From Amoebophrya sp. A120 (Eukaryota; Protista; Dinoflagellata): 64,000 nucleotides of DNA. The stretch covers positions 3,568,169 to 3,632,168 of the forward strand of contig CAJINV010000006.1 of the NCBI GenBank assembly GCA_905178155.1, given 5' to 3'. The translations under genes were made by a program, and so were the position numbers. Positions 10,601-59,737 of this stretch are shown piece by piece (the stretch's first letter is position 1; each line of letters opens with the position of its first letter). The notes under the pieces are model-generated. The model saw only the letters and a program-made list of their open reading frames with translations. It was not told the DNA's origin and did no database searches.

Positions 10601-11828
10601 AACAAGGCTTGTGATGCTAATACAAACTCGGAGTATCACGAGCAGGACGTCTCAAAATATTGCCAGCCCTCTGCCGAATGACATTATAGCTTTCGGGCTT
10701 CTTACGTGCTGCCTATGGATTCATCTGCGCTTCAAACTGCGTTTTTGTATGACAGAAAAACGGGCCTTTTGGGTACCAACGTGCATGACGGACTCGAAAG
10801 TCTGTCCCTGTGTCTGTCGTGCCGGCCGAGCACTACAAAAGCCTGTCCCTGCATTCTTCCAGACCCAGACACTCTTGATTTGATACTATCGTGGCGGTCG
10901 CGGCGGCGCCAGGAACGTCTTGTCCCTGTGGCTTTTTTATTTGGTCCTCTTCCTTTTTCGGGGTCGCGTAGCCCAACAAGGACCAGGGAAAAGAGAAGCC
11001 GGGTTCTGCCGGAAAAAGGTTCTTGCCAAGCCAGGAGTGGCTCGGCTGGTGGTCATCCACTTCTCCACCGGGAACCGCCGCATGCGTGCACGCCGGTGTT
11101 CCATAATTTTCGCTTCCTTCAGCACAGTCCGCGGCGGTCGCCACTGGCTGTTCCTCTGCCGCACGGCGTGCAGCTGTTCCGCGAAGATTGCCGTATTTGA
11201 CGCGATATGAAATGCAAAAATGTCTGGGTCTGGAAGAAAAATGCATGATTTGTCATGCATATTTCTCATGACCCATGATGCCTGTAATGCTCGACCTAGC
11301 ATCGCAGACTTTTAGAGGGCTTCCTGATGCACCCTCCGCATGACAAATGGCCCGTCCGTGTAGCAAAAACTGCACCCCTCTTGCTGGTCATGCAATACAA
11401 ATCTTTTTAGAGTCCAAAAACAGCACGACAAGTTGCAACGTTCCAGACCCAGACATTTTTACATTTGATACGCGACGCTTGGCTGCAGGCTGAGACGGAG
11501 CAACTACGGGCCCAGCTGTCGGTCCGCTTGTTTCCGGTCGGTTCTCGAGCGCGCTGGTGGGCACTCGTCCTTCTTTTTCCACCGCCCGACCCGACCCGTG
11601 AGAAAGTCCTCCATCCTCCCCTGGACCCCTGCCCAAATCGGGTTCCACGTCGTTCACCTCCCCTGCCCTCCTGACTCGCATTGCATGCGCGTTCTGCGGT
11701 GCTAAGCTGAAGTAGAAACACCCCGGCACGACCGCGGAGAGAGGGAACAGAAACCCGGGCAGAAGTAGGCGCCCAGATTTTGCTTTGTTCATTGTCTTCA
11801 TTTTGGATTTGCTGCTCAGCAAGCTCAT
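4645..11828 (-). CDS. Signal-peptide protein with long low-complexity N-terminus and tandem protein kinase + pseudokinase domains
   Basis: Approximate exons 11828-11471, 11205-10886, 10564-10072, 9806-9358, 9042-~6162, ~5034-4645; the first four joins are in frame after removing element+5 bp. Domain 1: GGKGTVGEVW, VLK, NDLKPRN, DFDLA, GFLSPA, KSDLFA. Domain 2: GGRGLNGKVW, VLK, NDVSPSS, NFDAA, KSDLFA. ORF 4645-5040 repeats the AQHIRLGL.PE.DS tail of domain 1. The last join is uncertain. Confidence 0.75.
5035..6161. mobile_element. ~1.1-kb GC-rich insertion or intron in the second kinase domain tail
   Basis: Separates segments that are contiguous in domain 1; poly-C run ~5050-5066; GCGCG direct repeats at 5030-5034 and 6162-6166 give the in-frame join TARAYFLDY; lacks TAT/ATA ends, boundaries uncertain. 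Confidence 0.45.
9043..9357. mobile_element. Introner family A, degenerate
   Basis: TATGCATTGCAAAT...ATTTGCAATGCACA; DR GCGAT/GCCAC; removal joins upstream exon to the kinase ORF in frame. Confidence 0.65.
9807..10071. mobile_element. Introner family H/F-like, degenerate
   Basis: TATCCCGACGAAAAAAAAACTGCTTACACTTACA...TGTAACGGTAACACTTTTTTCGTTGCATA; in-frame join; TAAG acceptor available. Confidence 0.6.
10565..10885. mobile_element. Introner family A, degenerate
   Basis: GGGTCTGGG / TTCCAGACCCAGACAC TIR cores; DR lost, but element+5 bp restores frame; a GT...TAAG splice is also in frame. Confidence 0.7.
11206..11470. mobile_element. Introner family A
   Basis: TATGAAATGCAAAAATGTCTGGGTCTGGAA...TTCCAGACCCAGACATTTTTACATTTGATA; perfect DR CGCGA; join KRRV-KYG. 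Confidence 0.92.
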
Positions 11829-13343
11829 AAAAAACTAAATCAAAAGGCGACTTTTCCTTTTACTTGTCTTCCTGCTGCTTCAGCTTCTACCTCGTGTTCG
11901 TCAAAAAAAAGGGGAAAAAATACGAAAAAAAAAACGTGAAAAAAAAATGTGAAAAAAAAGTTGAGAGTTGTGTCCGCGTTAAATTCAAAATTCATACGTA
12001 AAGTTCGCGATTTATCGTAAAAGCTTGACAAGATTTCTTTATTCTTAGTCCCCGGAGTAGCAGACTTCTTTATTTCGTCTTGTTTGTGTGTGCTTGGAAC
12101 AAGTTTCAGACTACAATTGAAAATTTTTTTTTGTACTACAGAATAAAAAAGTTCTTGGGAGTCGGAGTCGTGGTCTTTAGGCTTGCTTGTCGTTGAAGAA
12201 GTTCACAAACTCCCGTACCCGGTCAAATGTTACAAAGCGCGTGACTCTGCACAGAGGACAGGCACAAGCGATGTTGAGCTACTGTGCTTGCAAAGGTCGG
12301 GGTACGATCTTCACAAAACACAGCTTGTTCGTTGGATTCGTTAACGTTACTTAGCAGAGAGGGATACTTAATTTGCGGTTTTGTTTTTTTATTCCGCACC
12401 TGTCATTAGAATAGCAGCACAGGTACAGGAGCAATATCATTTCATCGCCAAGAAGACAAGAAGATGCTTCTCGCCTTTTGAGCGCACCATGGTCAGCATC
12501 TAGAACAAGAAGCCACCGACCACGAGCACTAGTACTATTCTATTACTAACTTAAGTTTAACTTTTCACGAGTAATAAATCCAACGAGGCAGAAGTCACTT
12601 GACCTTTGGGACGATGAAGCTGCGAACGATATGGTAGAAGAGGCACGAAGATAGTACCGACGTTGCCGTACGATTGTTCTTGTGCTTCTTCGACGCCAGT
12701 ATATTCACTTTCATTCTTTATGGTCACGACGAGATTTCGGCTTTAATACCGGATGAGAAAACCGAGACGAGACCAGGAGATTGCTTCATGGGCCGTGATG
12801 ATGGTGCACGAAACTCAATACGAAAATTCAACCGATAGAACTACTAAGGACAGAACTACTAACGACAATAATGTTCCTGCTTTTGTTGAATTCAGTCAAT
12901 ACGACAACGACCGAGGAGAAACCGCGGTACGGCGAAAGCGAAACCGAACTCATCTCACAACGATTTTCTTTCACGAACCGCCCAGTTTTGGGCCCGACGT
13001 TAGTATGACATTCTCTGAACCGACGAAAGAGGGATGATTTTGCCGTTTTTACACTGTCACTGCCTAAACTTGCGCCGGAGGAGCAGGTAATAAAGGTTGC
13101 AAAGCTCGAAGATAGATTTTTCACTATTTTACCGATATCACCCCTACTGACACTTCTTGCCGAGTTGATGTTTTGACATGTTGTACGAACAACACCAAGA
13201 GCCTGCCTGGTGCGATGGAAAGGAACGCGGCTGACCAATCTTCCAATACGGAAATAAACGAAGATTTTTATGCTGCTTCTAAACATGAATGGCCATGAAA
13301 TGAAGAAAATGTCTGTTACTTCTAAACAAGCCGAGTTGTACTT

Positions 13344-15434
13344 CTATGCAGACGGCAACGAAATCGATTTCAAAATGGTCAATTCATCCTTCGTCAAAAC
13401 TAGTGTATGGTCCACACAATGACTGAAAAACTGCCCCAGAGCCGGCTTGAAGAAAAGCGTTTTGTTTTTCGTCGAATCTTCTTCCTCATTGTTGTCATGC
13501 TGAAAGAGATGTTGAGAGTTGTGCTGCACGTCGCCCTTCCCTCCTGTAGCTGCAATTATGTCCTGTTGGCCTTGTCTCTGCACAATAGCCTGTTTCATCA
13601 TTTTCGGTTCAATTTCGATTCTTCGTTTCTTCACCTCAGGTGACGGTGGTTTCTGGTGCTGGTGGGCAGGAGCAATCTGCTGTACTTCATCCTCTCCACG
13701 GCGCTGATCGCTTTCCACCACGAACGGATCCGCCCCAGAAGCAACCGGAGCGGGTTCGTTAAACTGTATTTTGTTGAGTGCAGCCACAGCCTGGCTCAGT
13801 ATTTGTTCCTCCTCCTCCTCCTCGTCGTCAAACAAATCGCTGTCAAACACCTGGTCCATCAAACTGTTCATCTTCGCCAATTCCACCGCCTCTTTTTCCT
13901 GCTTGTTCGTCGGCTTAAAACGGATAAAATCGGCTTTGCTTGTAGTCGTCCCGGAAGATTTGGCGCCGTCCACCAGTGATGCTGCTCCAGCATCACAAGT
14001 TCCTCCGGAAGATGATGAATCCATACTAGAAGTGGCACCCCCACCATGCATCCGATACCCCCGCCAGAGCGTATCGTCTCCATAGGGCAAGACAAAGCTC
14101 CTCGTTAGGTGGTTCACGAGGATATATCAACTGTAAAAGTGTCTGGGTCTGGAAGATTCTGACACTTGTCATGCACGTTTTGTATGAGCCATGATGTCTG
14201 TGATGCATACCCGCCTAGCAATGCAGATTTTTTGAGGGCTTCTTGATGCCTATTCCGCATGACAAACGCCTTCTCAGCCGCGTAGTACTGCATTCCCTTT
14301 GGTACTCATGCAATACAGATTTTTTTGGAATCCAAATGCAGCATCACAAGTTGCATTCTTCCAGGCCCACACATTTTTGCACTTGGTAGGATACTCGTTT
14401 TCGCAACTTGCCGGATTTTTTGCATGGTTTTGAAAATTTTTTTGTTCAGGTTCAAACGGTCGGCGATTTGTGATTGCTTGTTGTCGTGAAATATCCTGTG
14501 CAGAAGTATCGCACTCGTATTGCAATCATGCATTTACAATTTTTTTTCTTAAGGTGAATCCGCATTACAAATTTTATTTCTCATGCTGAGGAAATTTGTA
14601 ATGCATTTATACGACTACGATACTTTTGCACTGTATATGAAATCCGGTAGTTTTCGTTGGGTCGATTGCACTCCGGATCAGAAACGCGATGGAGTCGACG
14701 ATGAGAAGGTCAAATTTGTTCGATTTTATTGTATGATCGGTTTGATTTTTGACGCATTGTTCGGTAATTTTCCCGTCCAAGAATTTGGAAAATTCCTCTA
14801 GATCGTAGACTCGTTCGAATTCGAACTCAAAAGGCGCAGCGGAAATTGTGATGGCGCAACCTGTCGTCCTGCCGGGGAAGAATTCCGTCCCGGAGGCCGA
14901 AAGGTGTTCTTGGAAAACGTCCTGCAATTCCAATGGATATCTCCCCTCCGGATCCAACATCCTACCGCCCTGCGTGTCCACGTAGCAGATGCGGAAAGTG
15001 GGACGTCGACGAGGATTTCTGAGTTCTTTGTCATGCTGTTTTCCAAGAGCCAGAGCAGCGACCGAGTGGTCTTCAGCTTCACAGCGTGCCAGCAAGTTCC
15101 CGCGGACGACGTTGTGCAACAAAAACTCGGAGATTTTCACGTTCGGCAGCCCGACGAGTTGCCAAATACCGGGGGTGAAGCCTTGGTTGTCCAAGTAGGC
15201 GTCGATGGCCGGGACGCCGGAGGTTATGAAGGATAAGGAATCCGAGCCTTCCTTGATGTGCTGGAAGGGGGCGGAGTAAGAAGAAGAAGATGCGGAGGAC
15301 GGTTGTCCACCTTCTGAACCGTAATTGGTTTGCTGGTGCTGCGAAATCTTCTTGTCGTTCCACGTTTCATTGGAGCTTTCGCCGTCCGAAACATCTTCAG
15401 CAGCAGACGGAATGGAACTTAGAAAGGCGTCCAT
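13344..15434 (-). CDS. RAD51 paralog (RAD51D-like RecA fold) with degenerate Walker A
   Basis: Three exons split by two introners. Motifs ITSGVPAIDAYL..GF.PGI.QLVG, ICYVDT, Walker B LLIVDS, SILVNHLT (formed across a splice junction), KPALG.FFSHCVDHTLVL. Confidence 0.8.
14125..14388. mobile_element. Introner family A
   Basis: TIR GTGTCTGGGTCTGGAAG; perfect DR GGATA; join SIL-VNH. Confidence 0.92.
14492..14637. mobile_element. Introner family B
   Basis: TATCCTGTGCAGAAGTATCGCACTCGTAT...ATACGACTACGATACTTTTGCACTGTATA; perfect DR TGAAA. Confidence 0.92.
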
Positions 15435-15837
15435 CTTGATGTTATCTTGATCTTCCCTTTCGTGCTCTCAAACACTTGCAGATGAGTTAACTCATGCACA
15501 CAATCTTTATCTTGCTGTTGCTGCACATGATGTCAAATTCAATTCTATCCAGTAGTTGCACTCGAAGCAAAGACGCACTCGCAACAGTAGCAGCAAAAAT
15601 CAGAAGCACACGAGGAGCGCCAGTATTCGCATGAGAACAGCAGTTACTTGCACTCATACGGCAGTGTGCTGTTTCCTTTTCAGCATCAGCGGTCTCTCCT
15701 GCTCATTGCTTCCCAAAGTTTTTTCTCCTTACATTTTGGCTGTCCTACTTAGCCCTAATCGTTGGTCCTGAAAGCTCGGTGACAATAGCGTCTGCCCGGC
15801 ACCATCGCAGTCATTGTAACTTCAAAATTTGCATTCG

Positions 15838-18800
15838 TCAGAACGAAATCAACCGCAACAGCATCTTCCTGTCTTCTTCCTCCGTCGGCGGCGAATAAGC
15901 CTTCCTTTGCAACATCTTTCCCTTCGGCTTATTACCAGCAGTGGACGAAGAAATTGTCGATGACACAAGGTCGAAAATGCGGTTTGAGGTGCCTGCATTC
16001 GCAGTCGCGTTGGCCGACGTCGGAGTTGAGTTGTAGCTGGTTTCGTATTGCTGCTTTTTCTGCTGCTCGTCAGACACGGTTCCATCGGTTTGGTCTTTCG
16101 ATCCGCCATCAGTACCACCAGCACCACCTGCTCCCGTGGGGCTCTTGTTTCCGTTCGTCTTTTTGAAAATCCTTTCGTAAAAGGAAGAAATTTTCGCGGA
16201 AGAAACTGCAGCAGCGGTGGCGGAGGCTGCTGTGGAGATTTCTGCATTAGCATTATCTCCTTGAGCAGCTGCAGTAGCTCCACCAGTTGCAGCTGTTTTG
16301 CTGCCCTGCGCGCCGGTACTGTCCTCCAAAAGACTGTCGAGAGACACATTCACAATTCGCGAAGCCGGCTCGAACTTCAAGTCAGACACATTCAGCGCGG
16401 GGGCCGCGGGGGGAGGGGGTGGTGGAGTACTCCCTTTTGACGGTATTACTGCTGCATCCGTGCTCTTCGGCGATGTTGTAGTGGTCGCGTTCCCGTTTAG
16501 TAGAGCTTCGACGATATTACCAGCACTTCCACTTTTCTGTTCCGCGGACACTGCAGCGTCAACTACCGGAGCGCCGCCACTAGACCCAGGGGCAACACCA
16601 GCTGCTTCCTTGCTCGTGGTCTTGCTACCCGGACCAGGACCGATGCCACCCGGGACGAGGTTGTTCTGGACTCCACTAGCAGTGCCTGCTCCTGCAGTGG
16701 TAGTCGCAATAGTATTCGCCACGCCGGCAAGAAAACCGCCGACAGACTCGTAAACATCGGTGACTTTGAGTTTCGCTGCACCGGCCATTTTCTCCTCGCC
16801 CTCCGAACTCGCTGTGGTGCTGCTGGCAGCTGCGGGCGGAGGAGGCTTGTGCGGTGACAACATTTGGCTGAAGAGACCACCCGAGGAACCTGTGCTGCCA
16901 CTTTTAGGTGAAGATGTAGATGTAGATCCAGAACCACCAGAACCTCCAGGTCCTGTCAACCCAGGAGAACTCGTCAGCAAACTTTCACTCAGCACTTTCT
17001 GCTGGTGTTATCAAATGCAAAAGTGTCTGGGTCTGGAAGAGTGCGCGACTTGTCATGCTGCTTTTCCATGACCCATGAGGTCTGGAATGCAGGACCTAGC
17101 ATGAAAGATTCTGCGGAACATTTCTCATGCCTATCCTGCATGAGAAACTCCCTCCCGACTTGGTCAAAACTGGACGACTTTTGGAAATCATGCAACACAA
17201 ATTTTGCATGCTGCAGATTTAGCATGACAAGTTCCAATCTTCCAGACCCACACACTTTTACATTTGCTAGGTGCTTCCGCAACGCAATCCTGGTCAATTC
17301 CCCGGTCAACGGGTCGAAGATCTCCGCCGGCAGAGGGTCGCCCGCGATGAAAAATTCTGTTTCGGACGTGAGATACCCCTGGTCCAGACGCTCGCGCATG
17401 ACAGATTTAGTACTGAACTGGTGGGCTTTGTCAGAAGAATTCTGTTGTTGTGTGGAAGTTGAAGTCCCACCGCTGCTTTCCATATTGACGCACACGTACT
17501 CGATCACGTTATTTTCTTGTGTTGCTTCATCTTCCGCAATAGACCTTTCTCCAGTCGGGAAAAGGGTAGTTGAAATAAACCTGTGACCGAATCTCACCAC
17601 CTGTTGCTCTTCCCGACATTTTTTCAAAGCGGGAGCGATAGAAGGAAGCCGCTCATTAATTGGCACGTTCACATCGATGGGCAGGAGCTGAATTCTCCCA
17701 ATGTTCTGCATACTTGGCGGTGGAGGTGCTGGGGCTGGCACAGTGGTGGAACCTGTAGTTTTCTCTCCGTTTACAAAATCAAGCACTGTAGTCGCAACAC
17801 CAGAAGTTGCGGCTGCTACTCCAACTCCTCCGGTACTAGTTGTACCTGTTGTAGTGGCAATTGCTGTAGTACTGCCAACTATAACATCATCGTTACCACC
17901 ACCACTCCTCGCCGCAACCGTCGTGGAAACTGTAGTTATCACGTTCGTGCCCGTTTGCTTCAAAAAATTTCCGACGAAGGAGACGTTGGTGTTCATGGTT
18001 TCAAATTGTTTCAGCATCTTGTTCTTGATCGTCTTTTGCTGCTCCTCCTCCTGTTCTTTCAGCTTCTTCTCCTCAATAATCATCTCCGACCGCGCCCGCC
18101 ACTCCGCGTACGATTGAGGAACGTTTACGTTGGTGTCGGCTGTGGACGATGTGGTGTCTCCTGCTTGCTCTTTCATTTCGGATGCTGTACCTCCTGTGGC
18201 AGCCGAAAAAAGGTCGGCTTGAAGACCGACAGCACCGCCGGTGGCTACAGCCGGTGGCGCAGCTGTACTAGTCAACGGTTCTGTTTGCCTCTGCGCTGTT
18301 GACGGCACCGGCACTGCAGCCCCTACCACTGCCGCGAACCCTGACGTGACAGAAGTTTGGTCCAACAGCGAATCGAGTAACAGTGCCGTCGGACTTTCGG
18401 CTTCGAGAAGATCTTTATTACGACTACCCGCTGCAGGAGTAGTTGTACTTGTAGCTTGGTGTGGAGGTGGCGAAGTAGAGGTACCTCCTGTCGTTGTAGT
18501 GCTGGAAGTTGCTGCACCTTCGTCAGCACCAGCACCCGCAGCCAGCAAATTCAACAAGTCAATACTCGCCCGGCGGTTCTCTTCGGTAGATGTAGTGCTG
18601 GTTCCGGCGCTTGAAAAAGATTGGTTTTGCGCATTAGTTGGCTCATTCGACACTACAGCTCCTGCAGCCCCCGCTGTAGAATTCCCCGCACTCGAGACTT
18701 ATGAATTGCACAAGTGTCCTCTGGGTCTGGAAGATTCCAACTTGTCATGGTAAAAAATCTGAAGCATGCGAAAATCTGTGTTGCATGAGTGCCAAGAGCT

Positions 18801-19566
18801 GTACACTTTTGACCAAGTTAGTAGTTGGAGGGGAGTTTCTCATACCAGGAGAGGCATGATAGGGATCTCACAGAATGTCTGTCATGCTAAGTCCCGCATT
18901 CCAGACCTCATGGGTCATGGAAAATCTACATGACAAGTCTACACTTTTCCAGACCCAGACATTTTTACATTTGATAGGACTGGGGGAGTTGGGCTGTCGA
19001 AGAGAGACAGTAGGTCAACAGAGTTAGAAGAACCAGGTGCACCTCCACCTATCGTGGCCGGATTGCCGGGCGTATTGAGATAATTGACCGGAGATGAAGT
19101 TGTGGCCCCCTTAGAAGCACAAGCATCAATTTTCTCCCGAAACTGGGTATACAGCACCCCGAGCTCCGTCATCTCATCCAGGCCTTTTTTCCCTTTGTTG
19201 GCCCGGATCAAGTCTTCCAGCATCCCAACCCAAGCTTGCTCAAAGCCGGAGAATGACTCGTTATGAATTGCAAAAGCATCGTACTAGTATGAATTCTTGC
19301 ATTACAGATTTCCTCAGCATGATAGATGGAACGCTTGCATTACAGATTTCCTCAGCATGTAATGCATGACTGCGATAATTGCTACGAGTACGATACTTTT
19401 GCAATGCATACATGTTATTGTTTTGCAATTCCAAACCGTAATACACAAGCACTTTCTCGATTCGCAAGTCGGACCGGCACCAGGACCGCAGCTGGGGTAA
19501 ATCTGCGTTTTGGAGTTGCGTCTCATCGCAACAGAGAATTTCCGTGGAGAGCTCTTCAACGTCCAT
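15838..19566 (-). CDS. Hypothetical Ser/Thr/Gly/Ala-rich protein (4 exons)
   Basis: Start MDVEELSTEIL at 19566; in-frame joins across elements 19262-19410, 18700-18976 and 17009-17269; no domain recognised. Confidence 0.75.
17009..17269. mobile_element. Introner family A
   Basis: ~30-bp TIR; DR GGTGT/GGTGC; join RKH-QQKVL. Confidence 0.9.
18700..18976. mobile_element. Introner family A
   Basis: TIR CTGGGTCTGGAA; DR AGACT/GGACT; in-frame join. Confidence 0.88.
19262..19410. mobile_element. Introner family B
   Basis: TATGAATTGCAAAAGCATCGTACT...AGTACGATACTTTTGCAATGCATA; DR CTCGT/CATGT; in-frame join. Confidence 0.85.
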
Positions 19567-19697
19567 TTTTATTTGGGGCAGGAGGTAGGATTTTGGGTTT
19601 ATTTTGAGAAATGGAAAGAGATAGAGAAGCAGTTGATGTGTCAGAACTTCTTCTTGTTCAGTTGGACGATATGAAGATCGCGCCCGGAGGGCGATAT

Positions 19698-20962
19698 TGG
19701 TAACCAAATGCGTGCGCGAAAATCTAACCAGCGCGAAAGCCAAACCAGCCGCGCGGCTGCCACCACCATTTCTTTTTTTTAATTAGAATCCCACTTCTTC
19801 TTCTTGAACCGCGGGCCGCAGTTTGCGGTCGCGGCCCCGTTCTCCTTGATTCGCGGGCCGCGACATGCGGTCGCGGCCCTAAAGGGCCGCGGACAACTAC
19901 TGTCGCCCGCGGCGGCCCGCAGGCTCCTGCGATAAGCATTGCAGGCGAAATTCGGTCTGCTATTTCGCAGCGGGGCATCCTTTCCAGCCCCCTGCATGAC
20001 AAACTGGCCCCCTGGCCAGGAAGGTATGTGCCCGGGGGGGCGAGCCCCCCCCGGACCCCCCCCCATCCACCTTCGCCGCGGGGCATCCTTTCTAGCCCCC
20101 TGCATGACAAACTGGCCCCCTCGCCAGGAAGGTATGTGAAAAACCGCAAAGCAAAGAACCCGGGCTGGGCCACCAAAGTCGGCCATTTCAGACCCGGGGA
20201 AGATGCCGAATTTCTGCCCACAACCCAGGGCAAGTGCGGACTTTGTGACATACCCCCGCCCGCTTCTAGTGCGGTTTTCTTTTCCCAATCGCGATGGTAC
20301 GGCGCAGGCGCGCGCCCGCCGGACCGCCCTTGGTGGCCAGTTTCTAAGCCTGCCGAGGGTTCTCGACTTTTGCTAATTCTTCCTTATTTTTCAAGCTTTT
20401 AGGTGGCCGAAGGGCTCTGCACATTTTCACCGCCCGCATCTAACTGGCAGTTTTGAAGCCTGCGGAGGGATTGCGCTTTTGCGCAATTTCTCATCTTTTT
20501 TCATTTTCCAAGTGGCCCGGGTGATCTGCACAAAATCCGACGATTGCTTCCGCCCACGTTATGAAGCAACTTTTTGCCATTTTTTTCCAACTTTTTCCAG
20601 TTACGAAGCGGCCCAAGGCTTCCGAACAGGTCGCGGGCCTGCTTCTCCAACGCAGCTGGCCAGCGGGCGGAGCAAATAGCAGTCCGTCTCTTTTTCAGAT
20701 ATCAAGTGGGCCAAACCGCAAAAATGCTCTTTTTTCACCTTCTCCCGCTTGGTTTCTGCCGTTTTTGCGACATTTTTGACCTCCTGGCCATTTTCCCATC
20801 TGCTCCGCTTTTTTTCCCTTCTCCCGCTTCATTTCTGGCCATTTCCCTGACCTTCACGCCTCCCGGCGGTTGCCCTATATGGTAACGGCAACTGCCTTCG
20901 CGCTGCGTTTGCTAAGCAATATCGCAAGCGCGCAGAGCGCGCGCGCACGCATTTGGTTACCA
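19698..20962. mobile_element. Non-autonomous ~1.27-kb TIR element, intergenic, GC-rich
   Basis: 21-bp TIR TGGTAACCAAATGCGTGCGCG at both ends; internal ~60-bp direct repeat (19971-20030, 20079-20138); second copy end at 1-38; no credible ORF. Confidence 0.8.
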
Positions 20963-24427: not shown

Positions 24428-24631
24428 AAATCAAAATCCCGGATGTCTAAGCTCAGTTCTGGGAATAAATCACATAAGCAACAGTAGCAGCCAGCACGAG
24501 ACGGGCATGATTTCCACTTCCCTTTCTTTATATGATTCGTGACGCGAAGACGACCTCGAACCTACACAGCCAGCTTCGTCAAGTATCTCACGAAATGGTC
24601 CAGATGATAAATGCAACAGCTTATGAGTTCT

Positions 24632-39497: not shown

Positions 39498-39734
39498 GCT
39501 TGTTGGTAAGCACGTGCTACTTCTACTTCTACTGGGAGCTAAAAATCTTGATTACAAACTACTTGAGGCAGTGGGGACATCAAACCAATTATTGCGTAGC
39601 GGTTGGTGGAAGGCGAGCAAGGCATATGTACAAATTCTAGCACTCGTTTATTTTTTGCACCTGTATTCTCGAGTATGTTTCATCGTCCGCTGTAGTCAGC
39701 GCTACCGCGTCGGTATAACTTTTCGGCCTTCATC

Positions 39735-48620: not shown

Positions 48621-49818
48621 GAATATTTTTTATCAGAAGTATATTTTTGGCGCGAAAAATATTCGCTTGATTAAAAATTGGCTTGTGTTCTTTTTTTTCT
48701 AAGCCTCCAACCACTCTTGCTCTTGAAAGAACACGATTTATTTTTACGATCATGCGAACGCGAAGGTCACAAGGCAACAAAACTACATGGATGAAAGGAG
48801 AACTACTTACGAGGCTCCCGAGAAAAGGAAAAGAACTTGATGGCGCATCACGAGCATGATGGCAAATAAGGTTCACTGTTTTTTTACTCGTGGAGGTCCT
48901 GCAAGATGAACATCACTGCGTCGACGTGCGACACACTCCTACTTTCCTCCTAGCAAAAAATAAGTAACCACATCTGGCAAAGAACAATCCACTACGTCCA
49001 CCTTCCTCCCGCTCCCGTCAAATGCACCGGTGGAATGTTCTATGAACGCGAAAAACCAGCTGCAAGATAAGGCCATTTTCGTTGTTCATGCAGCACATGG
49101 ACATGCATCCGTTCTTTATCATCTCGCTCTCGCATATAATTTAGACTTCGAGGTAAAGAAAAATAAGATCCAGATCGCGGTACACAGGAGTGCAGGAATG
49201 CAAGAAACCGCCTGTGGTCTTGTCCCAGATGAAGACGAAGATCGGCCATATAAACACAGAAGTTCTACTTATTTGTGTAGTACCCAAAACGGTACTAGGG
49301 GTAGAAGGGCTTGTGATTATGCCGCATCAGCACTTCCTGATCTTCATATTCGACCTCGATGAAGCTATCAACAAGGTTTTTCGCTTTCGTATTCCCATAG
49401 GCGGGGGTGGGGGCACGAAGTTTGGCGAATTTGGATCCTTGGAGACCCGTTTTCCGTGGAAATTCACGTTCTTCGCCTTGATCTTCTTGTAATACTGGGA
49501 AGATGCTGCAGTAGAAGTAGAATTCTTCTTCATCCCGCCCCTAGTGTTGTATCTCGGCGGAGTTCTTGACAGCTTGTACGGCGATAGCAAATCCCCGCCG
49601 TCGTCCGAGGAAAGGCTCGCCTGCGATAAGCGTCGCCGCCTGTCTGGGTCCCCCAGGCCTAACCCACGCATATCCCCATTTAAATCAAGTACCAACGTCT
49701 CGTTCCTGAAAGTAAATCTGTCATGTATGTTGTCCGCACGATCATCGTATCCTCTCATATTTGTGTGTTCTTGCATCACGACAAACTGTCTTTTGTAAGG
49801 GCGAAGACCGTGGTGATT

Positions 49819-52800
49819 TCATTCTGTAGGATACCGTATCGGCGAGATCGAGGCAGCGGCGCCGAGCCGGGTCGGGGGAAGTGGGAGAGGTAGGCGGGGA
49901 AGGGGAAGATTGTTGTGAGATATGAGAGTGCACAAAACCCCCTCAGCCTTATTTCTATGGCATGAACAGCAATACAGGCATCAGCAACAATGCAGGTTTT
50001 GCATGACAAATTTGCAGCAGAGTGTAGTGCTATTTGGGGTGCCATAACTTGTCATGCAAACAGTGCCAAGAGGGGGCAAGGTGTGGATTTGGTATTTTGC
50101 ATGACAAATGAGGGCGGGGAGTTGTGCACTCTCATATGAGGGTGAGATGCTGCAGTGGAGTTGATGTTACTGCTGCTTCGCTCACGACCGCCGCTTCTTC
50201 CTGTAATGCTATTCAGAAAACCGCCGCGCGAAGCGCTATAGGATCTGCTTTTGGAGGATAGTTTCCCGCGTCCGGGTAGCCCACCTGTCATGCCGCTTTG
50301 CTCGAGCAACACATGGTGGTACAGCTCCGGGTATCGCACGAAAAAGTGTTTTAAAACGGTTACAACTGTCGAGGAAATTTTGCATGCAGTAAGAACGCAT
50401 GAGAGAAGTTGTTTGTTCTTCCTGCATAGCATGCATAAAAAGAGAGAAGATCTGTCATGCGTGACTGCAGTTCCTCAAAACTGTTGATGCCTACACGACT
50501 CTATAATTTCTGGTTGATATCGGATCTTGCTCGTACAGAGTGGAATACAGCTATCCAAAAAAAAAAAGAGCCATCCCCCTGCCTTCCCCATCCATCTCTT
50601 GTATGACATGTAGCGAGATCTTGTGCGTGTTTTGCATGGCAAATTGGCTGAGAATGTTATTTTTTTTTGTGCATAACAGCTTCCGAATCGATCTTTCCCG
50701 TTTTGATGTCGTGCTCCGGTGGTCGTGCTTCGTCGATGTGTATTTGGCCTGCTGATCGTGGTTTGCAAAAACACCACCACCCCCGGTACTGACAATCGCC
50801 GCCTCGGGGTCGGGAACAAACAAATCCGGGTCAAATTTCTTCCGGAAACAGCAGTAGTGGAGCACCGTGTAAAACCCGGTCGCGAAACAGCTATGCATTG
50901 CAAAATTTTTATCGCACTGGTACTACTAATTGCAGTTATGCATGAAGGTTGTAGTTAGGATGAATCAGCATGACAAATTCCATCTGTAATGCGGGTCCAG
51001 CTACTTCTAATGCAATGTCTCCTTAAAAGTACGATGTTTTTGGTTTTGCATGGCATAACAGCAGATGATTAGCAACCCGATGAAAATCACAATTGGGTTC
51101 TTTTCCTTATGGGATTCTCAATTGTTACACTCTCAGCTGTTACATGAATTTGTGATGCAAAATGACCATGAGGCGCCAGACGATCAAGCTGCTTCGCATG
51201 ACGAATTATCGAAGGGCTAAACAGCATGTAGATCTGCGCGAAACTTGTGATGCAAGACTTGCCACCTTGCCCCTTTCCCTCTTGCTGTTTTTGCATCACA
51301 AATTCGTGTAACAGTTCAGAATGTAACATTTGAGAACTCCATATTCTTTCAAAATCTCCACTTCGTAGATGTTGACCAGCAGATCGTGGAAGGATTTATT
51401 GTCTAAAAATTAACCATCCCCATCCAATTTGTCATGCAATACATGTAGTAAAGTCAGTGTTTGTCATGCAAAAAGTGCATGGGGATGGTGAATTTTCAGG
51501 AGATAGGACTCCGGGTGGTCGAACGACAGCTTCTCGGTTTGCAATCCGTTTTTATCCTTCAACGCACCGTAGCTGTCGTCATCGCAAACGAATTCGTAAC
51601 GGGAGCCGTCTTTGCACCGCAACTTGGCCGAGGAACAGCCGTTGTTGCAGTAGGTTGTGAAGACTCGTTTTTCCTCCTCTCCGATCCGGAACATGGGCAG
51701 TATCCAGAGTAAGAGCCTTGCCGTAGAAGTACTACTTCTCGCGGGGCTGACCACATGTAGTATCATTGTTGCATCACAATAATTTCATGTACGCTAGTTG
51801 TACCGTCCTTTTCAGCACGACAAGTATCAAGTTCGTTTGCTTTCAAGAATTGACTGCTTCCCAGTTGTGAATTCAACTTTGTGAAGATGCACTTGGTGCA
51901 CCGCTTACGAGTCCGCCTCCCTCGTGTAGCTGTACGGCGGCAAGACATAAATTTCTCTTGCATAGGCGCGTAGCTGATCAGACAGGTGCTGCTCACCAGT
52001 TTCAGGTCCGAATCCGCCTGCTCCTCGGTGCAAGTGCAGCCGTTCTGCACACCGTTCAGGAGGGGTCGAAACAGTTCTCCAGATTTGCAGATGCAGTTCG
52101 AGTATCAACTGCAAAAATGTCTGGGTCTGGAAGAATGCATGTTTGTCATGCTTGTCTGGCATGACCCTTAATTAAATCTGTCATGCACATTACCCAAGAG
52201 CCCCATCTTTCTGTGATGCAGAAACGCAGTTTGTCATGCAGAATAAGCAACACCTAGAAGCTCAGAAACTTGTCATGCTGATCCAGCATTTGTGGCCTCA
52301 TCATGAGACGCCACCGAGCATCACAAGTTTCCAGACACAGACATTTTTACATTTGATATCGAGGGAAACACGTTGTTGTCCGCTGCGGTACATTGCGGAA
52401 TCGAGTGGGGCTCGTTGACAGCGCGGCTATCATGATTTTTTATGAAAATGCAGAACTCAACTCCCCCTGCCCTCATTCTATGTCATGCAAAGTTATCAAC
52501 TCAACGCATGGTCGTGCCGTGTTCTAGGTGGTGTAGCTTTGAAAGCGTGTTGACATCAAGCAGCTTCAGAAGCTGACGCTGCAATACAACACTGGTCCGC
52601 TTGTAGGTGTAGCTTGTTGAGCTTAATCGTGCGAAACGAAACCCTCCAGTGTACTTACTGGTGTTCGTTTGGTTTATTATCACCGCCCTTCAATACCAAA
52701 AGAGGGCATCAACAGGGAGCTCTTCTTGTGCACTTTCGTACTTTCGGAAGATGCTGCACTACTGCTGGCCGAGGAGGACGAGGCGGAGACTACAGCGACC

Positions 52801-52931
52801 GTGCTACAGGAAAACAAAACGCAAAGCAGCACTGTCCGCGAAGCGCGACGAGAAAGCATGGAGAAAGAACGACGTGAAAACAGCACCATCTTGTCCTCGT
52901 TACGAATCTTCATAGGGATCAAGATGATCAA
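49819..52931 (-). CDS. Cys-rich single-pass membrane protein; 5' exons and C-terminus uncertain
   Basis: Signal-like VLLCVLFSCSTVAVVSA; Cys-rich exons (NCICKSG, NGCTC, YCNNGC); TM IVIFIGLLIICCFATGFYTVLHYCC formed across an introner; seven TIR elements; may extend to ORF 49327-49779. Confidence 0.6.
49921..50136. mobile_element. Introner family C
   Basis: TATGAGAGTGCACAA...TTGTGCACTCTCATA; DR TGAGA/TGAGG. Confidence 0.9.
50332..50519. mobile_element. Introner family H, right end degenerate
   Basis: TATCGCACGAAAAAGTGTTT left end; DR CCGGG/TCGGA; join QDP-ELY in frame. Confidence 0.65.
50552..50675. mobile_element. Introner family G-like, degenerate
   Basis: TATCCAAAAAAAAAAAGAGCCATCCCC...TTTTTTTTTGTGCATA; perfect DR ACAGC. 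Confidence 0.78.
50892..51057. mobile_element. Introner family B
   Basis: TATGCATTGCAAAA...TTTTGCATGGCATA; perfect DR ACAGC. Confidence 0.87.
51108..51343. mobile_element. Introner family D
   Basis: Family D TIRs; DR TTCCT/TTCTT. Confidence 0.9.
51397..51505. mobile_element. Introner family G (109 bp)
   Basis: ACCATCCCCAT / ATGGGGATGGT arms; DR GGATT/GGACT; join PES-FHD. Confidence 0.8.
52103..52358. mobile_element. Introner family A
   Basis: Family A TIRs; perfect DR TCGAG. Confidence 0.92.
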
Positions 52932-53753
52932 AATGAAGGTCGTACGTCAACGTCGAGAAGAGCAATTCAAGTACTTATTATCCTCGATACAGGCACTGCA
53001 TTTTCCTTGGTCGTGATCACGAACTTGTGATACAACAGACAGCTGTTGGTCAATATTTTCTACTCATCTCTCATTCACTTCAACTCTTCTACTTTCTGTT
53101 TGCCACCCTCGTCCGCTGTCTTAACCGTATGCTTTTTTCTTCATCTAGAACAATACTCTGCCCGCTCTGGAACGAAACTACTCTTCGTCGTTACAACACA
53201 GGTTACAGAACAGCCTGAATACCCAGACAATCCCTTTCACAATAAACGGAAACGCTACGAAATAAGCCAGGAAAAATGTCGCGGTCGTTGTTGTCCCAAT
53301 TTCTTTGGTGCGACCACAGCTGCCATGTTGTTGTACAAAAGGTAAGCAAACCACGCCTGGTGTTTCCGCTGTGACAATACAAACCCGTAAAACGACAGAT
53401 CACTACTTTGAGATATGGAGATCAGCGGCAAGAAAAAAAAATGAACTTTTTCAGTAATAGCGTAAATGCTGCGAGCCGAGTAGCAGCTCCGTGCAACTTT
53501 CATCAGTAAAGGAAAACTATACTGTAGTAATCGTAAAATGTAAATGAATGCTAAAAATTACAAAGATTCAAAATAATGGAAAACGAAGAAGCAAGACATA
53601 GCTTCGATGTGAGAAGATGAAGATGCGCCATGTACCTTCGATGGCGCGTTCTGCTTGTCATACAACATCACCTCCATCTCACGTGTTCACTGCCCAATAA
53701 AACCAAAGAAAAAGACGACTGCTCGTCCAACATTTTACATCCCCTTTCCTTCT

Positions 53754-55224
53754 TCACTCCGCTGCCGACACCACGGCTTCATCCGAGTTGTACGAGTATT
53801 CCGAAGAGGATCCAGAGAGCACGGTGTAGGCGTCCGCGTGGCCCTATCCAGGAAAAAAAACTGTGTAAGTGTAACTTTGTAGGAAGAGCAGCATCACAAA
53901 TTCGCTTTGCATTACAGGGAAAACCTGTCATGCGTAGCTAGTACGTGGAAACGCGTATGATAGTAGCCTATGACGCACTTCCAGCATGACAAGTATAATT
54001 GTTTTGCATTTTCTGCATCACACATTTACACTTACACAGTTTTTTTCTTGCTTAGGCCCTCGCCCCGCCTTCTGCGCTGGTCCCTCGAACGATCTGCGGA
54101 CCGGGGGCTGGAGTTTGCTAGTATCGTAGGGAACAAAAATGAACTGCCCCTACTTGTACTCGCCCTGCTTGCTCATTATGTAAAAGTAGTTCTTTTTTTT
54201 CTCATGCAAAAACCCCATCTACGTTACTACGAACTGCAGCTCGAAAAGCAGAAACTGCATCATGATCATCTTCTTGCTTAATATCCTTGTGCTTAAATAC
54301 GGAGTATTGTGATGGGCATAGGGAAAAACAAGCAACGGGGCAGCAGCTGTCCTCAGACTTTGGATACTTTTCGAAGAATGAAATGTGGACGATGTCGCAG
54401 ACGAAGAGCTGCTGCTTTTCTTCTTCTTGTATCACACAGAAAGAAGCAGGTAGGTCAGATCATTTGTAACGCAAAAATACACAAAAAAATCAAATCTGTA
54501 TGGCATATCCTAAACAGCAGGCTATGAGACCGCCCATGACAGACGTTTCTGTGTATTTACTTTTGCATGAGAAAAAATATCTATGACCTGCCTGCTTTTT
54601 TCTGTGGAATATCTTGCAGCACGGGCACATTTGCGCGCAACACCCACCCTTGTCCCGACGTGAAGATTCGTGCGCTGAGCTGCCAGGGTATGCAGTGCAA
54701 AATTCGTTTCATCTTCTCTTCCCGGACAGGCACAGCACGTGCACAAAATGCATGACAAAATTGACTAGCAACTTCCAAGAAGAGGTGGACACTTCTCTTG
54801 CCAAATACAATCAATAGTACGAAGTAGTACGCCCACCACCAGAACATTTGAACTGTCAAGCAAGAGTACGTACTACGGTAGTTTGTTATGCGTGTCCGTG
54901 AATTATGAAATTTCATCCTTTGGATACAGCGCCAATCCCGCGGTTTGTTTCCCGGCAGCAGCACACGGCGCACATGCAGTCCTTGAAGCAACGGCAGGTG
55001 CCACAGAAGCAGCAGCAGATGATCCAGAGAAGAAGCAGCGCCAGCACAACAGCGCCCGCAATCACGCCCCAGGTGATCCACTTTTTCCGCGTGTCATCAT
55101 CTCCGTCCTGGAGGAAGTTGGAAGGTGGCTGAACTACAACTGCTGCTGCAATTTGTTCCTCGACAGTGGTCATCTTCTGCAGCTCGGAAGCTGCAGAGAT
55201 CTCCATCTCGACGTGGGTATGCAT
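53754..55224 (-). CDS. Small single-pass membrane protein with Cys-rich juxtamembrane segment; downstream exons uncertain
   Basis: WITWGVIAGAVVLALLLLWIICCCFCGTCRCFKDCMCAVCCC; putative terminal exons flank the element at 53845-54054. Confidence 0.45.
53845..54054. mobile_element. Introner family H
   Basis: TATCCAGGAAAAAAAACTGTGTAAGTGTAA...TTACACTTACACAGTTTTTTTCTTGCTTA; perfect DR GGCCC. Confidence 0.88.
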
Positions 55225-57293
55225 TGTGATTGATTTCTTCTTTGGTTTTGGTCTTGATTTTAAACAGTTTGGTACCTTCACAACTGCGAAAAGCGAAAGA
55301 CGAGGATATAATAATCAGCTACCGTTTTTCATTTTGTAATTTCGAGAGCTTTCTGTTTTTACTGTACTTTGATAAACAATAAGCAGCAACCAATCGGGCG
55401 CCTGGAATAATATTTTCAAAGTCGACGTGACAAGAAAGTAAGTTCGATAACTTAGTCCTAGCAAAAAGTTTGGTATCCATGCAGCGGTTGTAGTCCTAGC
55501 GCAAAAAACATGCGGAAGCTCTTTGCTGAGCACATGTGGTAATTCGAGAAACTAGATTAAGCAGAGAACCGATCACTTCACCACGCTGAAGAGAAACCGA
55601 TGAAGAGAACGAAAAATGCGTCTCCGTGCGTGAAACCGAAGGAATGGGATACAACTTGCAAGCGAGGAACCGAATTAAACCGAGGAGCGCCCGCGTGGGC
55701 GTGGCCAACTGAGGTGGCAAAGTAAATAAACAAAAGAAACCGAGCAAATCCAAATTGATGTCGCACCACCGAAAATATATGTATCACAATCACTATCATC
55801 ATGGCAAACCGAAAACCTGTTGCACAATATCAGAGCGTGACCGATCATAAGGCGCCGTCTGACCGAGAAGGCGCCGTCGACGAGAAATCTCCGCATGACG
55901 ACGAAGGACTTCATCAGATGCAACCAGTGTCGTGCACCACTACAGATCTCCACTTAGCGGCGTTTTTTTTTACTTAATTCGCAGAAGTTTGATGTTAGAG
56001 ATCAGAAACAACCTTTAGTCGTAGAAATGCGCTGCAGTAAGTTTCAAGTCCAAGTCGTAGTTTTTTCTTGTCGAATCCAGCAGCTTCACCGCGGGGGCCT
56101 GAGTACTTCTCCGGAAGGAGCAGTTGCAACAGTAGCCCGATTTTTTAGTCCTGGTAACGTCGATAGCAAATTTTCACGTTCACGCTGCTGGAAACGACGG
56201 CAATTCTACTTTCACAGCTCTCTAGATAGTAGTTTGTTCGGCAGATGAAGTACAAGTACTCTTGAATTTTTTCTACATTATCCTCTCTACTAGTCGTTAT
56301 TCTTCGTTCTTCTCTTGAATTTATTTTCTGTATTTCAACGGTTAGTGAACTATGTCAGGACAATGTGATTGGTAATGCATAGAAGTCAAAAAATAAAAAA
56401 TAGTGCGTGCGAGATGACGGGAATAAAGTTTAGCATAAGCATGTGTAAGTTGTTGTAACAGGAGATGAAAGTAAAAGGCTAAGTGTAGTGGTCATGTGAG
56501 ATTATAATTTATGTAAAATATTTAAGAAGTAAATGAGGTTACAAAAACAAAACGTAAAAACAAAAGGAGCTTGTTGAAAACAAAATTTTCGAAAGCTAGA
56601 GGAAAAGCTAGCCGCCTGGCACGATTAGAAAATTCGCGTCAAGCAACTAGACCTGTACAGATAGTCGACTACTGCTCGTTGACGATGACGGCTTTGGCAC
56701 ATCTACCTCTCAGGGGAATTGAAGGCCCGACACTCTACTTCGAGCCCAACATGTAGACACGGCAAGCCAGCGCTACTTTCTGGTGCGTCGTAAAATTTCT
56801 CTTACCCGCCTCACTTTCGTGTCTACTGCGCGATACGATAAATGTAAGTAGTCGTGCTCCTCCTGCTAGTAGTAAATCTAGAGCTAGTCGATATCAAGTA
56901 CATCCAGAATATCCCATCACAATTTGCAGCTGAAAAGCCATGTAGCGTGCATCCGGTTCCTGTGTAAAAACTAGTAGCGAAATGCGAGCTCCTGGCACCA
57001 CAGTCACAATTGATTGTGATTCGTTCGCTTCAATTCCGCGAGCGGATTTATCCGCCATTTTTAGCTGGGACTGCGACTGGCTGCGGATAAGAAGTTCGGA
57101 AAAATGGTCCCGACGATGTAGTCTTGGAAGGCGAATAAATGAGACGGAAAAATGGTGGTCTTGGAAAGCTCTTCACTCTTGTTCTCTTGTGCGAAATCGA
57201 AGCAACTCCTCGCCCCTCAAGGCCGTGAAGCTGAGAATTATATCGAGAAACGCCTTTTTGAGTTCGTCTTCGTTCTTCTCCCTGTTTTTTCTT

Positions 57294-59737
57294 TCAGTTC
57301 GCATTCTTGGACTTGCGCAGGTATTGCGCCACTGACATCACCGTTTCTTCGTCGCTCGCGTTCGAGTCTTCTTCGTCCGACCCCGTTTCCGAACTGCCCA
57401 CAGCCTGTCCCATCACCACGGGCGCGCCACTTTCCCCCTCCGGGGAGGCGGGGATTTGTTCTTTCCCCGCTTTGTTCTTTCCCTTGTTCATTTTTCCACC
57501 CTTCTTGCCCTTGCCCTTTTTTCCGCCCTTCGCGGACATGGAGTGTTTGGACAGCGGCTTCGTATGAAATGCAAATATGTCTGGGTCTGGAAGGTTCCGA
57601 GATTTGTCATGCAGTTTTTCCAAGCTCCGCCAACAAGTCTGAAATGCAGGGCCCAGCATCACAGGTTCTGCAGCTCCTTAGTGATGCCTGTTCCGCATGA
57701 GAAGTGCCCTCTCAGTTTGGCCAGAAATAGGCACCTTTTGGTGCAAGCCATGCAAGACAGATTTTTGCAGGATGCGCAACACGCATCACAAGTTCGCAGC
57801 CTTCCAGACCCAGGCATATTTGCAATGCATACTTCGTTTCATCGTCGTAAAGGCCCGCGATCGGCGATTCTTCGTCCTATGCAGTGCAAAAGTATCGCAC
57901 TAACGTAAATGCATTACAGATTTCCTGAGCATGAGAAATAAAATTTGTAATGCTGATTTACCTTAAGAAAAAGATTTGTAATGCATGATCGCAATACAAC
58001 GAATACGATACTTTTCCCCTCCATACGTCCCCTTCATCGACCAGCTGATTTTCCACGTCCGCCTGGCCTTCGCCGTAGCGGGAGCGGCCCGAAAACCGCG
58101 CCGGGCCGGTCACCAGCCCGCCCTGCCAGTAGTCACCTCCGCCACCATACCCGCCATCATTGTAGCCGCCGCCACCGTAACCGCCGCCGCCTCCGTAGCC
58201 ACCGTAGTCATCGTAGCCGCCACCGCCGCCGTAGGCTCCGCCGCCGCCCCAGTACCAGTCGTCTTCGCCCCACTCGTCCCAGTCCCCATCGCCACCGGCA
58301 GCTGCGTATGCATTGCAAAAGTATCGCACTCGATGTACTGATCGCATTTATGCATTACAAATTTCTATATGTCAAGATGAATCCGCATGACAAACAAGGC
58401 CCACCCGAGCGTGGGGACAGGGTCCCCACGCTGGGGCCTTGTGCTCGTCCCTAGTGGCGCTAGTGGGGGAAGGGTGTTCGGCATCGGGGCGGACAGCGTC
58501 CGCCCCTCGCCTCACACCAGGCGCGCGCGTAGTGGCTTAGTGCGCGAAACGCTAGTGGGGGAAGGGTGTTCGGCTTCGGGACGGACAGCGTCCGCCCCTC
58601 GCCTCACACCAGGCGCGCGCGTAGTGGATCAGTGCGCGAAGCGCTAGTGGAAAAAGGGCGAATTAGGCGCCCTGCATTTTGCAAGAAAAAAGAAAAATAG
58701 AAGCAAAGTAAATATCTCTGTGTGGCTTCTGCAAAAAAGTTCTCTAACATTGAAGCGCAACGCCTTTCCGATTCCACAGAGCAAAGTAAGCAGCTGTCTC
58801 CTGGCCGTGCATTGCAGAGATAGCCGCTTACTTATTTTTCCATGGCACCGCAAAGGCTTCTTTGCTTATGGAGGCAGTTTGTGTTACGGCATTAATCTTT
58901 TTCATTTTTTGCGTCGCGTTTCTTTTTTTTTGGCGCTTTTAATTTATTTTTCACGTCAAGAGCGGCATTTGGCGTGAAAAATAAATATTTGCGCCCAGGC
59001 GCTGGCCTCGCCTTTGCTTTATCCTCTCGCTTCGCCTGTCGCGGCCAACTGTCCAGGTCACCTGTCAAGGTCACCTGTCAAGGTCACCTGTCAAGGTCGC
59101 CTGTCAATGTCACCTGTCGCGGTTACCTGCCAAGGTCACCTGTCGCCGGGGGGTAGGCGGGACCAGAACCCGGAAGTCAAGCAATGTAAATATTAATCTC
59201 ATTTCTCATGCTGAGGAAATTATTTGTCATGCGCATTATACTAGATCTAGAACTAGTACGCTACTTTTGCAGTGCATACTGCGTCCTTGTCCTTGTCCTT
59301 CTTTTTGCAACAACAGCAAAACTTCTTCCCACACCAGGTACGCGTATGACAGTGCACAAGAGCTCCCACTCCCCTCCTTTGTATTGCATGAACAGCATTA
59401 CAAGCACCAGTGCATGTGAACCCTGTGCATGACAAGTTCATGCGCCGAGTGTAGAAGTACTGTTTGGATTTCCGGAATTTGTCATGCATGCGGAGGTGCC
59501 ACAAGGTAGCAACTGTATTTGGGTTTTTGCATGACAAATGAGGGGGATGGGGTGCTCCTGTTGTGCACTCTCATAACGCGCCCGGCCGATGCACGACGCG
59601 CCGCGGCAGCAACAACACATCGCGCCCAGAATGAGGGCGAACACGGCGACGCCACCGAGCACATACCACACAATGGGATCACCGGTCGTGTCCGTTACTG
59701 CCTGCGTCACGGCCTCCGCGCCGCGTAAACGGACCAT
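57294..59737 (-). CDS. Single-pass membrane protein with Cys clusters, Gly/Tyr-rich region and Lys-rich tail (5 exons)
   Basis: TM IVWYVLGGVAVFALILGAMCCCC; in-frame joins over four TIR elements, all with perfect DRs; GGGY repeats; KGGKKGKGKK tail. Confidence 0.82.
57563..57831. mobile_element. Introner family A
   Basis: Family A TIRs; perfect DR CTTCG. Confidence 0.92.
57878..58025. mobile_element. Introner family B
   Basis: Family B TIRs; perfect DR CGTCC. Confidence 0.9.
58459..58650. repeat. 92-bp tandem duplication within introner cargo
   Basis: GCTAGTGG recurs at 58459, 58551 and 58643 with near-identical intervening sequence. Confidence 0.85.
59041..59144. repeat. 13-bp minisatellite (AAGGTCACCTGTC) x8 within introner cargo
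   Basis: Eight consecutive units, several identical. Confidence 0.9.
59345..59575. mobile_element. Introner family C
   Basis: TATGACAGTGCACAA...TTGTGCACTCTCATA; perfect DR ACGCG. Confidence 0.92.

Follow-up and report, generated by a model that had tools for sequence, protein, structure and literature searches.

A spaced motif shared by the introner elements of Amoebophrya sp. A120, apparently an undescribed cis-element of a known system

A 64,000-nt stretch of the genome of Amoebophrya sp. A120 (contig CAJINV010000006.1), a parasitic dinoflagellate in which most introns are small transposons lacking normal splice signals, contains 50 introner elements, short insertions with inverted ends that behave as introns, and these elements share a short internal motif, GCATNACAA. 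The whole stretch is called the window here, and all coordinates are window positions. The elements correspond to the introners described by Farhat et al. 2021 (PMC7789003) and are therefore known; the motif is real and is apparently an undescribed cis-element of this known system. The reading that is tentatively preferred is that the motif is a double-stranded DNA-binding site of one protein, most likely a transposase that would mobilize all of the element families, although the protein itself is a candidate only.

Matches to GCATNACAA or its complement number 127 in the window, 123 of them within 11206-59575, versus a mean of 2.44 and a largest count of 7 in 100 shuffles of the window. The recurrence of this motif, noticed in a sequence-only reading of this DNA, is thereby confirmed. 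The exact form GCAT(G/C/T)ACAAA accounts for 91 copies in the window, GCATNACAA tops the 9- to 11-mer counts, and the central base is G in 65 cases, T in 34, C in 25, and A in 3. An iterated weight matrix, which makes the tolerated variants visible, finds 268 sites where about 23 are expected (a background of ~0.36 hits per kb), with the consensus (T/A)GCA(T/a)NA(C/g)A(A/G)(A/G)T. The site can be written as (T/A)GCATNAC(A/G)(A/G)(A/G)T, a conserved pseudo-palindrome of 11-12 bases about CATG.

The 50 elements, mapped in 9043..59575 without assigned strand, have TAT...ATA ends, a 5-bp target duplication, and 1-7 motif sites each. Their motif density is 20.3 matrix and 10.1 exact hits per kb (n=50, 10,716 bp), about 40-fold above the 0.48 and 0.19 hits per kb of coding exons (20,824 bp, partly predicted from open reading frames, or ORFs); the remaining DNA of the window has 0.76 and 0.24 (29,044 bp). 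The motif is thus far from equally frequent inside and outside the elements, and the earlier impression that it is rare in exons was accurate. Canonical introns, which are taken up below, have 9.9 matrix and 4.4 exact hits per kb (1,816 bp). An exact copy is found in 43 of the 50 elements and at least two matrix hits in 49, a tally that includes seven elements added or re-bounded by hand once motif clusters were known; several copies per element is the rule, as had been claimed, but the range begins at one.

A second sample was provided by JACKZZ01, an Amoebophrya-like metagenome assembly of which 276 kb were examined, and which shows 66% identity to one A25 protein. This assembly is possibly A120 itself, so it supplies extra copies rather than an independent phylogeny. 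An element finder blind to the motif recovered 281 elements in the 276 kb and none in 225 kb of simulated control. Removal of 90 elements holding the search pattern left 239, 48 of them from the window, that were unselected for the motif; at least one internal site is present in 237 of these and at least two in 229. In JACKZZ01 the elements carry 19.7 motif hits per kb and the long ORFs 0.31. The motif occurs in all 15 multi-copy families, so the claim that it is common to all families stands for these, but an inverted-repeat element without TAT ends (31394-31616) has none. The description of the families as otherwise unrelated does not wholly hold, because ends of the form TAT-(C/G)-N6-AAAAA and the 5-bp duplication are common to them. 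When 20 of 64 metagenome parts were scanned with a motif pair, 111 of 141 loci came from JACKZZ01, and no other lineage with such motif arrays was found in those parts. The other 30 loci were dropped, those inspected being tandem repeats or isolated pairs. Seven loci on viral contigs were likewise set aside as chance or tandem repeats: within 3-4 kb they showed just 2-3 exact copies, and elements were lacking.

The identity of the elements as introners is evident from their ends, their duplications, and their removal. Two exons of the window are 100% identical to the Amoebophrya A120 proteins P0001 and P0005. Forty-six of the 50 elements measure 109-321 bp, free of larger inserts or flagged nesting, and two, of 956 and 972 bp, carry inserts. 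The target duplications are uniformly 5 bp (31 of 50 perfect, 45 at least 4/5 identical), with 56% GC, no sequence preference, and no preference for GT or AG. The base A occupies end positions 11-13 in 40, 41, and 43 of 48 ends (24 family units); the TAT end was partly demanded by the finder, and in copies found by homology TAT differs at 1.8%. With terminal inverted repeats, a duplication of fixed length, and many short non-coding copies, the elements have the features of miniature inverted-repeat transposable elements (MITEs).

Removal was followed in contigs of runs X1 and X4, from one sample, which were judged to be RNA by the tool's guess, backed by four skipped GT-AG introns and by poly-T ends. 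Among 20 listed joints (54 further joints lie outside this count), 16 remove exactly the element plus one 5-bp duplication and four are GT-AG introns. Among raw RNA reads, run X9 contributed 101 partial reads, all on one inverted repeat, and run X10 contributed none; neither run bears on removal. From eight joints with differing duplications, a common cut register would have the 5' end cut 1-2 nt ahead of TAT and the 3' end cut 3-4 nt past ATA. Protein mapping of the P0005 host gene (32463..38470, minus strand, 621 aa) gives 21 introns, 14 of them element plus duplication and seven GT-AG, and the A25 orthologue is 80% identical over 352 aa that span junctions. Non-exonic copies amount to only 1 of 271. 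The RNA of the elements is predicted to fold into hairpins, with a median z of -7.7 over window elements below 400 bp and values of -11.1 and -6.7 for individual folds.

The motif is strongly constrained among replicating copies. Its core differs from the family consensus at 11.4% of positions (1157/10155), versus 26.8% of the element interior (6283/23481); the inverted repeats differ at 12.3% and the central motif base at 30.7%. The motif lies below interior divergence in 13 of 13 families, and in nearest-neighbour pairs of copies it differs at 2.9-12.1% versus 11.2-33.4% for the interior. It therefore changes at less than half the interior rate rather than decaying as fast as the rest of the element. 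It is also conserved across families whose inverted repeats differ. One might suppose that the motif has no function, being inherited from a common ancestor of the families or serving only in hairpin pairing; the shared termini do suggest common descent, and half of the sites can pair with each other. However, the conservation is sequence-specific and well above that of the interior while the central base is free, and it extends even to a family whose two sites share one strand (3.7% versus 20.8% in the interior). The no-function reading is largely refuted by this conservation and is very improbable.

Constraint after insertion is not clear. The four best motif positions differ by 5-8% from the consensus or between copies, and their divergence climbs with copy divergence, more slowly than that of the interior. 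Mismatch between the two duplications, which arises only after insertion, is 7.2-7.8% and sets a floor; the best motif positions, unlike TAT, are not below this floor, and for that reason no clear post-insertion constraint can be claimed.

The placement of the sites follows the element ends. In 24 family units, 32 of 46 ends have their first site 36-41 or 43-50 nt inward, and sites of one direction lie ~3 nt further inward than opposite ones, so that the CATG dyads coincide. Consensus sites no more than 110 nt from an end number 54; 10 of them have dyads at 37.5-39.5 nt and 15 at 45.5-51.5 nt, with none between. Same-strand pairs 30-34 nt apart number 23, versus 4.4 expected (largest 15 in 5000), and occur in 14 of 24 family units; measured from the dyad, the same-strand partner is often 31-33 nt further in. 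Symmetry is less common than had been stated: among the 50 elements the outer sites mirror each other in 14, are inverted at unequal distances in 23, share a strand in 11, and in two there are fewer than two internal sites. A general periodicity of 10.5 or 16 nt was not established over all sites, and a strict spacing rule of the 12/23 kind failed.

Families are inserted within open frames in both orientations (31:36 and 19:28), including one whose six consensus sites all lie on one strand (5:7); the strand caller was correct in 19 of 20 window calls. This dyad-anchored, orientation-free layout points to a protein that reads double-stranded nucleic acid, and the distribution, conservation, and two-way insertion together uphold the suggestion of a common, orientation-independent cis-signal. 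That suggestion had allowed for either a transposase sub-terminal site or an intron-definition signal, and both survive; what the geometry and the two-way insertion disfavor is a version in which the motif is read on the sense strand of RNA or pairs with a small nuclear RNA (snRNA).

A single-stranded RNA signal of that kind, recognized by an RNA-binding protein or by snRNA pairing, would fit the excess of UUGUNAUGC over GCAUNACAA in canonical introns (about 13:5), a weak, post-hoc orientation bias of 32:15 (p 0.02) in five asymmetric families, and the presence of sites in both orientations in all 16 RNA-verified elements. A fixed sense orientation is not what the one-strand family shows, however, and in RNA the element 37934-38042 offers only UUGUCAUGC and the element 51397-51505 only GCAUGACAA (with protein or ORF support only). 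In addition, the position is fixed at the dyad in either direction, and 156 of 194 sites are predicted to be paired in RNA folds. No Rfam match was found in the window. A sense-strand RNA signal is improbable.

Repeats near both ends, a conserved distance, and conservation above the interior, all seen here, are the marks of a transposase subterminal binding site. Arrays of subterminal transposase-binding sites are known from Ac/Ds, En/Spm, and P elements, and RAG follows a 12/23 spacer rule; in these systems short sites recur in either orientation, internal to the terminal repeats, and their distances are set, sometimes with a difference of one helical turn between the two ends. The A120 elements differ from these systems in duplication length or termini and in doubling as introns, and binding is putative here; a strict pairing of a short end with a long end is absent, about half of 13 consensus families fitting it. 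A transposase is ranked first for three reasons: the layout follows the element ends, all duplications have one length, and post-insertion constraint is not clearly shown. In the mechanism envisaged, the site offsets would correspond to one and three turns of B-DNA, and bound protomers would be aligned along one face of the helix, drawing the TAT ends together for cut-and-paste transposition with a 5-bp staggered cut. All families would belong to a single non-autonomous superfamily. Splicing would depend chiefly on the TAT/ATA ends and a family-specific hairpin, and the motifs of canonical introns would be relics of older insertions.

Several observations weigh against a transposase. None was found in 26 ORFs of the window, in 70 of 160 long ORFs of JACKZZ01, or in 10 ORFs from long elements and inserts, and seven candidate long elements above 420 bp (340 kb examined) held no transposase domain among the ORFs scanned. 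In the portions of PMC7789003 consulted, putative transposases are reported only for A25 and general mobilization by transposases is ruled out; the consulted portions of Gozashti et al. 2025 (PMC12130899) assign diverse origins to the A120 introner families. Taken together, the sites fail to show a clean 10.5-nt period (R 0.29, with 9.5 nt the better fit). The post-hoc orientation bias given above (32:15) also counts against a transposase, and predicted RNA folds pair 101 of the 194 sites with a second site. In older copies the best motif positions differ at 4.8%, versus 14.3% for interior positions fixed in younger copies, a comparison biased by regression to the mean. The remaining points concern canonical introns.

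The motif is not limited to elements. The canonical set consists of 10 GT-AG introns without inverted ends in three genes, three identified by RNA joint and seven by protein mapping. Eight of these have a matrix hit and two have none. Together they hold 17 matrix hits versus 1.07 expected (largest 7 in 1000), a 16-fold excess, and eight exact copies versus 0.15 expected. Similarity to a family profile past the motif is absent in six of the eight motif-bearing introns, marginal in one (34994-35122), and clear in one, 37455-37602, which scores 19.7 bits versus at most 13.9 in 40 shuffles and, judged by its sequence, is likely a decayed element. The library of 13 family profiles is insensitive, since two true singleton elements reach only 10.6 and 15.0 bits. 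Simulated neutral point decay of 20-30%, enough to erase inverted repeats, leaves 0.6-1.6 exact copies per kb versus the 4.8 seen, and decay of 15% leaves 2.7; the model contains point changes, with deletions outside it.

These introns bring in a second reading, in which a host protein, bound to the gene or to the paired intron hairpin, directs a spliceosome lacking U1 to cut at a set distance. Only transposon families bearing the motif would survive as introns, and different inverted repeats would in this way come to share one motif. This reading is a serious possibility, and it can coexist with a transposase role. The excess of the motif in GT-AG introns and its under-prediction by neutral decay both argue for it, as does the finding that four of the eight motif-bearing canonical introns place the first dyad, measured from the donor, inside the distance windows of the elements. 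The position of the intron 43779-43924 is probably shared with a distant relative, to judge from the exon-like boundaries of P0003 and from P0002, and hence probably old. The duplications show no GT/AG preference, and the cut must therefore be positioned by other features; all of the RNA-verified elements carry both site orientations; and U1 was not detected in A120, according to the consulted portions of PMC7789003. Against it stand the two canonical introns without a hit, the failure of single sites to be frozen after insertion as TAT is, and the one or two of eight canonical introns that resemble decayed elements, in a comparison where the library misses even true singletons. The decay model also omits deletion of the ends, and the set is only 10 introns in three genes. 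A host factor is a close second to the transposase because canonical introns carry the motif and U1 was not detected. A bolder form of the idea is that A120 marks canonical and non-canonical introns alike with a spaced array of a motif read in double strands, that distance from a bound host protein fixes the splice positions in place of U1 and the GT-AG rule, and that transposons became introns by carrying the mark; this is a possibility, though less likely than not.

A third possibility is that the motif is bound by a DNA-binding or chromatin protein of the host that takes no part in cutting either RNA or DNA. Such a protein might position nucleosomes or another nucleoprotein structure, or ease transcription through the insert, to the benefit of the elements. 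The DNA-like geometry and the presence of the motif in both kinds of intron would be explained, as would two motif copies, at 19994 and 20102, in an intergenic repeat that lacks TAT ends. TTGTNATGC is similar to the composite Sox-Oct site of animals and TGATGCAA to a bZIP site, and bipartite sites of protein size thus have this appearance. However, intergenic DNA and exons carry the motif only at background level, and its distance is set relative to element ends, something that a general chromatin signal would have no need of. Such a protein is unlikely to be the explanation.

For A120 family 38, a supplement row of PMC12130899 gives the labels '5-bp TSD, TA/TA Termini' (TSD, target-site duplication) and 'Ginger', and the part of the text consulted gives Copia-related homology; together these are a lead only. 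Ginger2/TDD elements share terminal inverted repeats with the A120 elements, and their duplication is 4 bp, or 5 bp in TDD-4 and TDD-5, so the A120 length fits these two TDD elements only; Ginger termini are TGTNR, and the A120 elements begin with TAT instead (PMC2836005, as consulted in part). No Gypsy-like integrase was found in the ORFs scanned from the window, JACKZZ01, and long elements. An 815-bp element, L044:4583-5397, has the ends of the 236-bp family and an insert of ~560 bp; it is a short element plus insert with no Pfam match. The Copia homology of family 38 may be cargo, because L044:4583-5397 is close to that family in size and end length.

The elements agree with the published A120 introners. 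The consulted parts of PMC7789003 describe, in the same organism, inverted repeats of TAT, seven variable bases, and AAA, along with 3-5-nt direct repeats, hairpins, and non-canonical splicing. An internal motif, a rule for its spacing, or its occurrence in canonical introns is not described there. The present elements also differ in having 5-bp duplications throughout and in being removed as the element plus exactly one copy. The families of PMC12130899 are also DNA elements with terminal inverted repeats, of 106-349 bp (808-810 bp for family 38), as judged from the portions consulted, including 22 of 58 A120 rows of supplement 8; beyond their diverse origins they differ in that the word 'subterminal' has no hits in that text, and GCATGACAAA has none in 12 of 14 supplements. 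MITE-derived introns of Fritillaria borealis and nonconventional introns of euglenids have inverted ends, duplications, and borders other than GT-AG as well; in the consulted part of PMC11282704 these are described with end signals only, and no shared internal spaced motif is mentioned. Neither the motif nor its spacing rule nor its presence in canonical introns came up in the searched texts and supplements, with figures and some supplements outside the search. The consulted parts of PMC7789003 leave open how tens of thousands of introns with arbitrary border dinucleotides are removed with no detected U1, and what copies them. A short universal motif with a spacing rule offers bait for a protein and a site for mutation. 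A transposase would reduce some 1,950 listed families to one superfamily with a single mobilizer; with a host factor, introns would be defined from inside, on DNA or on paired RNA.

Individual elements illustrate the range of layouts, and of three examples offered earlier as symmetric only one is so. The element at 36786..37021, in the region of intron 5 of the P0005 mapping, has TTGTAATGC at 36828 and GCATGACAA at 36971, each 47 nt from its end, with inner sites 48 nt inward of the outer ones. The member of the commonest short family at 33638..33794 has sites at 42, 60, 76, and 108, is unequal (42/50), and is spliced as 162 nt, the element plus 5. The 109-bp element at 37934..38042 has both sites on one strand (37970 and 38002, 32 nt apart), which cannot pair as a true inverted repeat; it is excised in the P0005 protein mapping, with no RNA joint among those listed. 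The 312-bp element at 32531..32842 has 32-nt same-strand pairs at both ends (48/80 and 81/49) and is spliced as 317 nt. The element at 11206..11470, with seven sites, belongs to the GTCTGGGTCTGGAA family (250-280 bp, 13 window copies in both orientations). No strand is assigned to these elements, nor to one at 40479..40632 that is nested in the canonical intron 40458-40774.

The canonical introns with the motif include three on the minus strand: one of a Bax1-inhibitor gene (43779..43924), which is supported by an RNA joint, has a motif pair 38 and 71 nt from the donor, and shows no detectable inverted ends; that at 34994..35122, with a site 45 nt and a weak one 77 nt from the donor; and that at 37455..37602, with three sites and a family-profile alignment extending past the motif. 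Donors are GTAT or GTAC in nine of 11 canonical introns, such as 37689-37831, 43779-43924, and 36064-36168, and the TAT of an element end corresponds to donor positions +2 to +4 of such introns. In several canonical acceptors ATC stands a few bases ahead of AG, which recalls the ATA plus 3-4 nt of the elements. A predicted canonical intron at 52428-52696 retains the remnant of one element end 14 nt before its AG.

The two long elements, 25908-26863 and 58307-59278, each contain ~800 bp of GC-rich repeat DNA. Excision of either one whole plus five bases leaves frames of 904 and 268 aa open, respectively, with no RNA joint seen; the insert of 25908-26863 is found again in loci L016 and L060. The hairpin element at 31394-31616 has 97-nt arms and lies close to the 3' end of the P0005 gene. 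The match of an X4 contig breaks off at 31620, and the contig has a poly-T end at 31293, so this element may be skipped in RNA. The repeat with the two intergenic motif copies (19699-20962) is of a different kind, ~1.26 kb long with TGGTAACCA ends and situated between genes; the copies lie within a 108-nt direct repeat, and the right end of another copy of the repeat is at 1-40.

Other features of the window include adjacent Bax1-inhibitor-like paralogues at 38998-42083 and 43346-44754 whose intron sets differ, and a GC-rich non-coding block at 46000-48400, between gene clusters, with degenerate GCGCGCGC and AAAATTTT repeats, no motif, and no Pfam match in three ORFs. An ORF of 1024 aa at 6122-9193 lacks any Pfam match and contains an internal 500-bp duplication (6886-7386 and 8509-9000). 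In the first 4.7 kb of the window, the segment 3045-3145 pairs with 13349-13454 as a 106-bp, 91%-identical copy of a gene 3' end, and a lone TAT-ended hairpin with one motif lies at 1562-1729.

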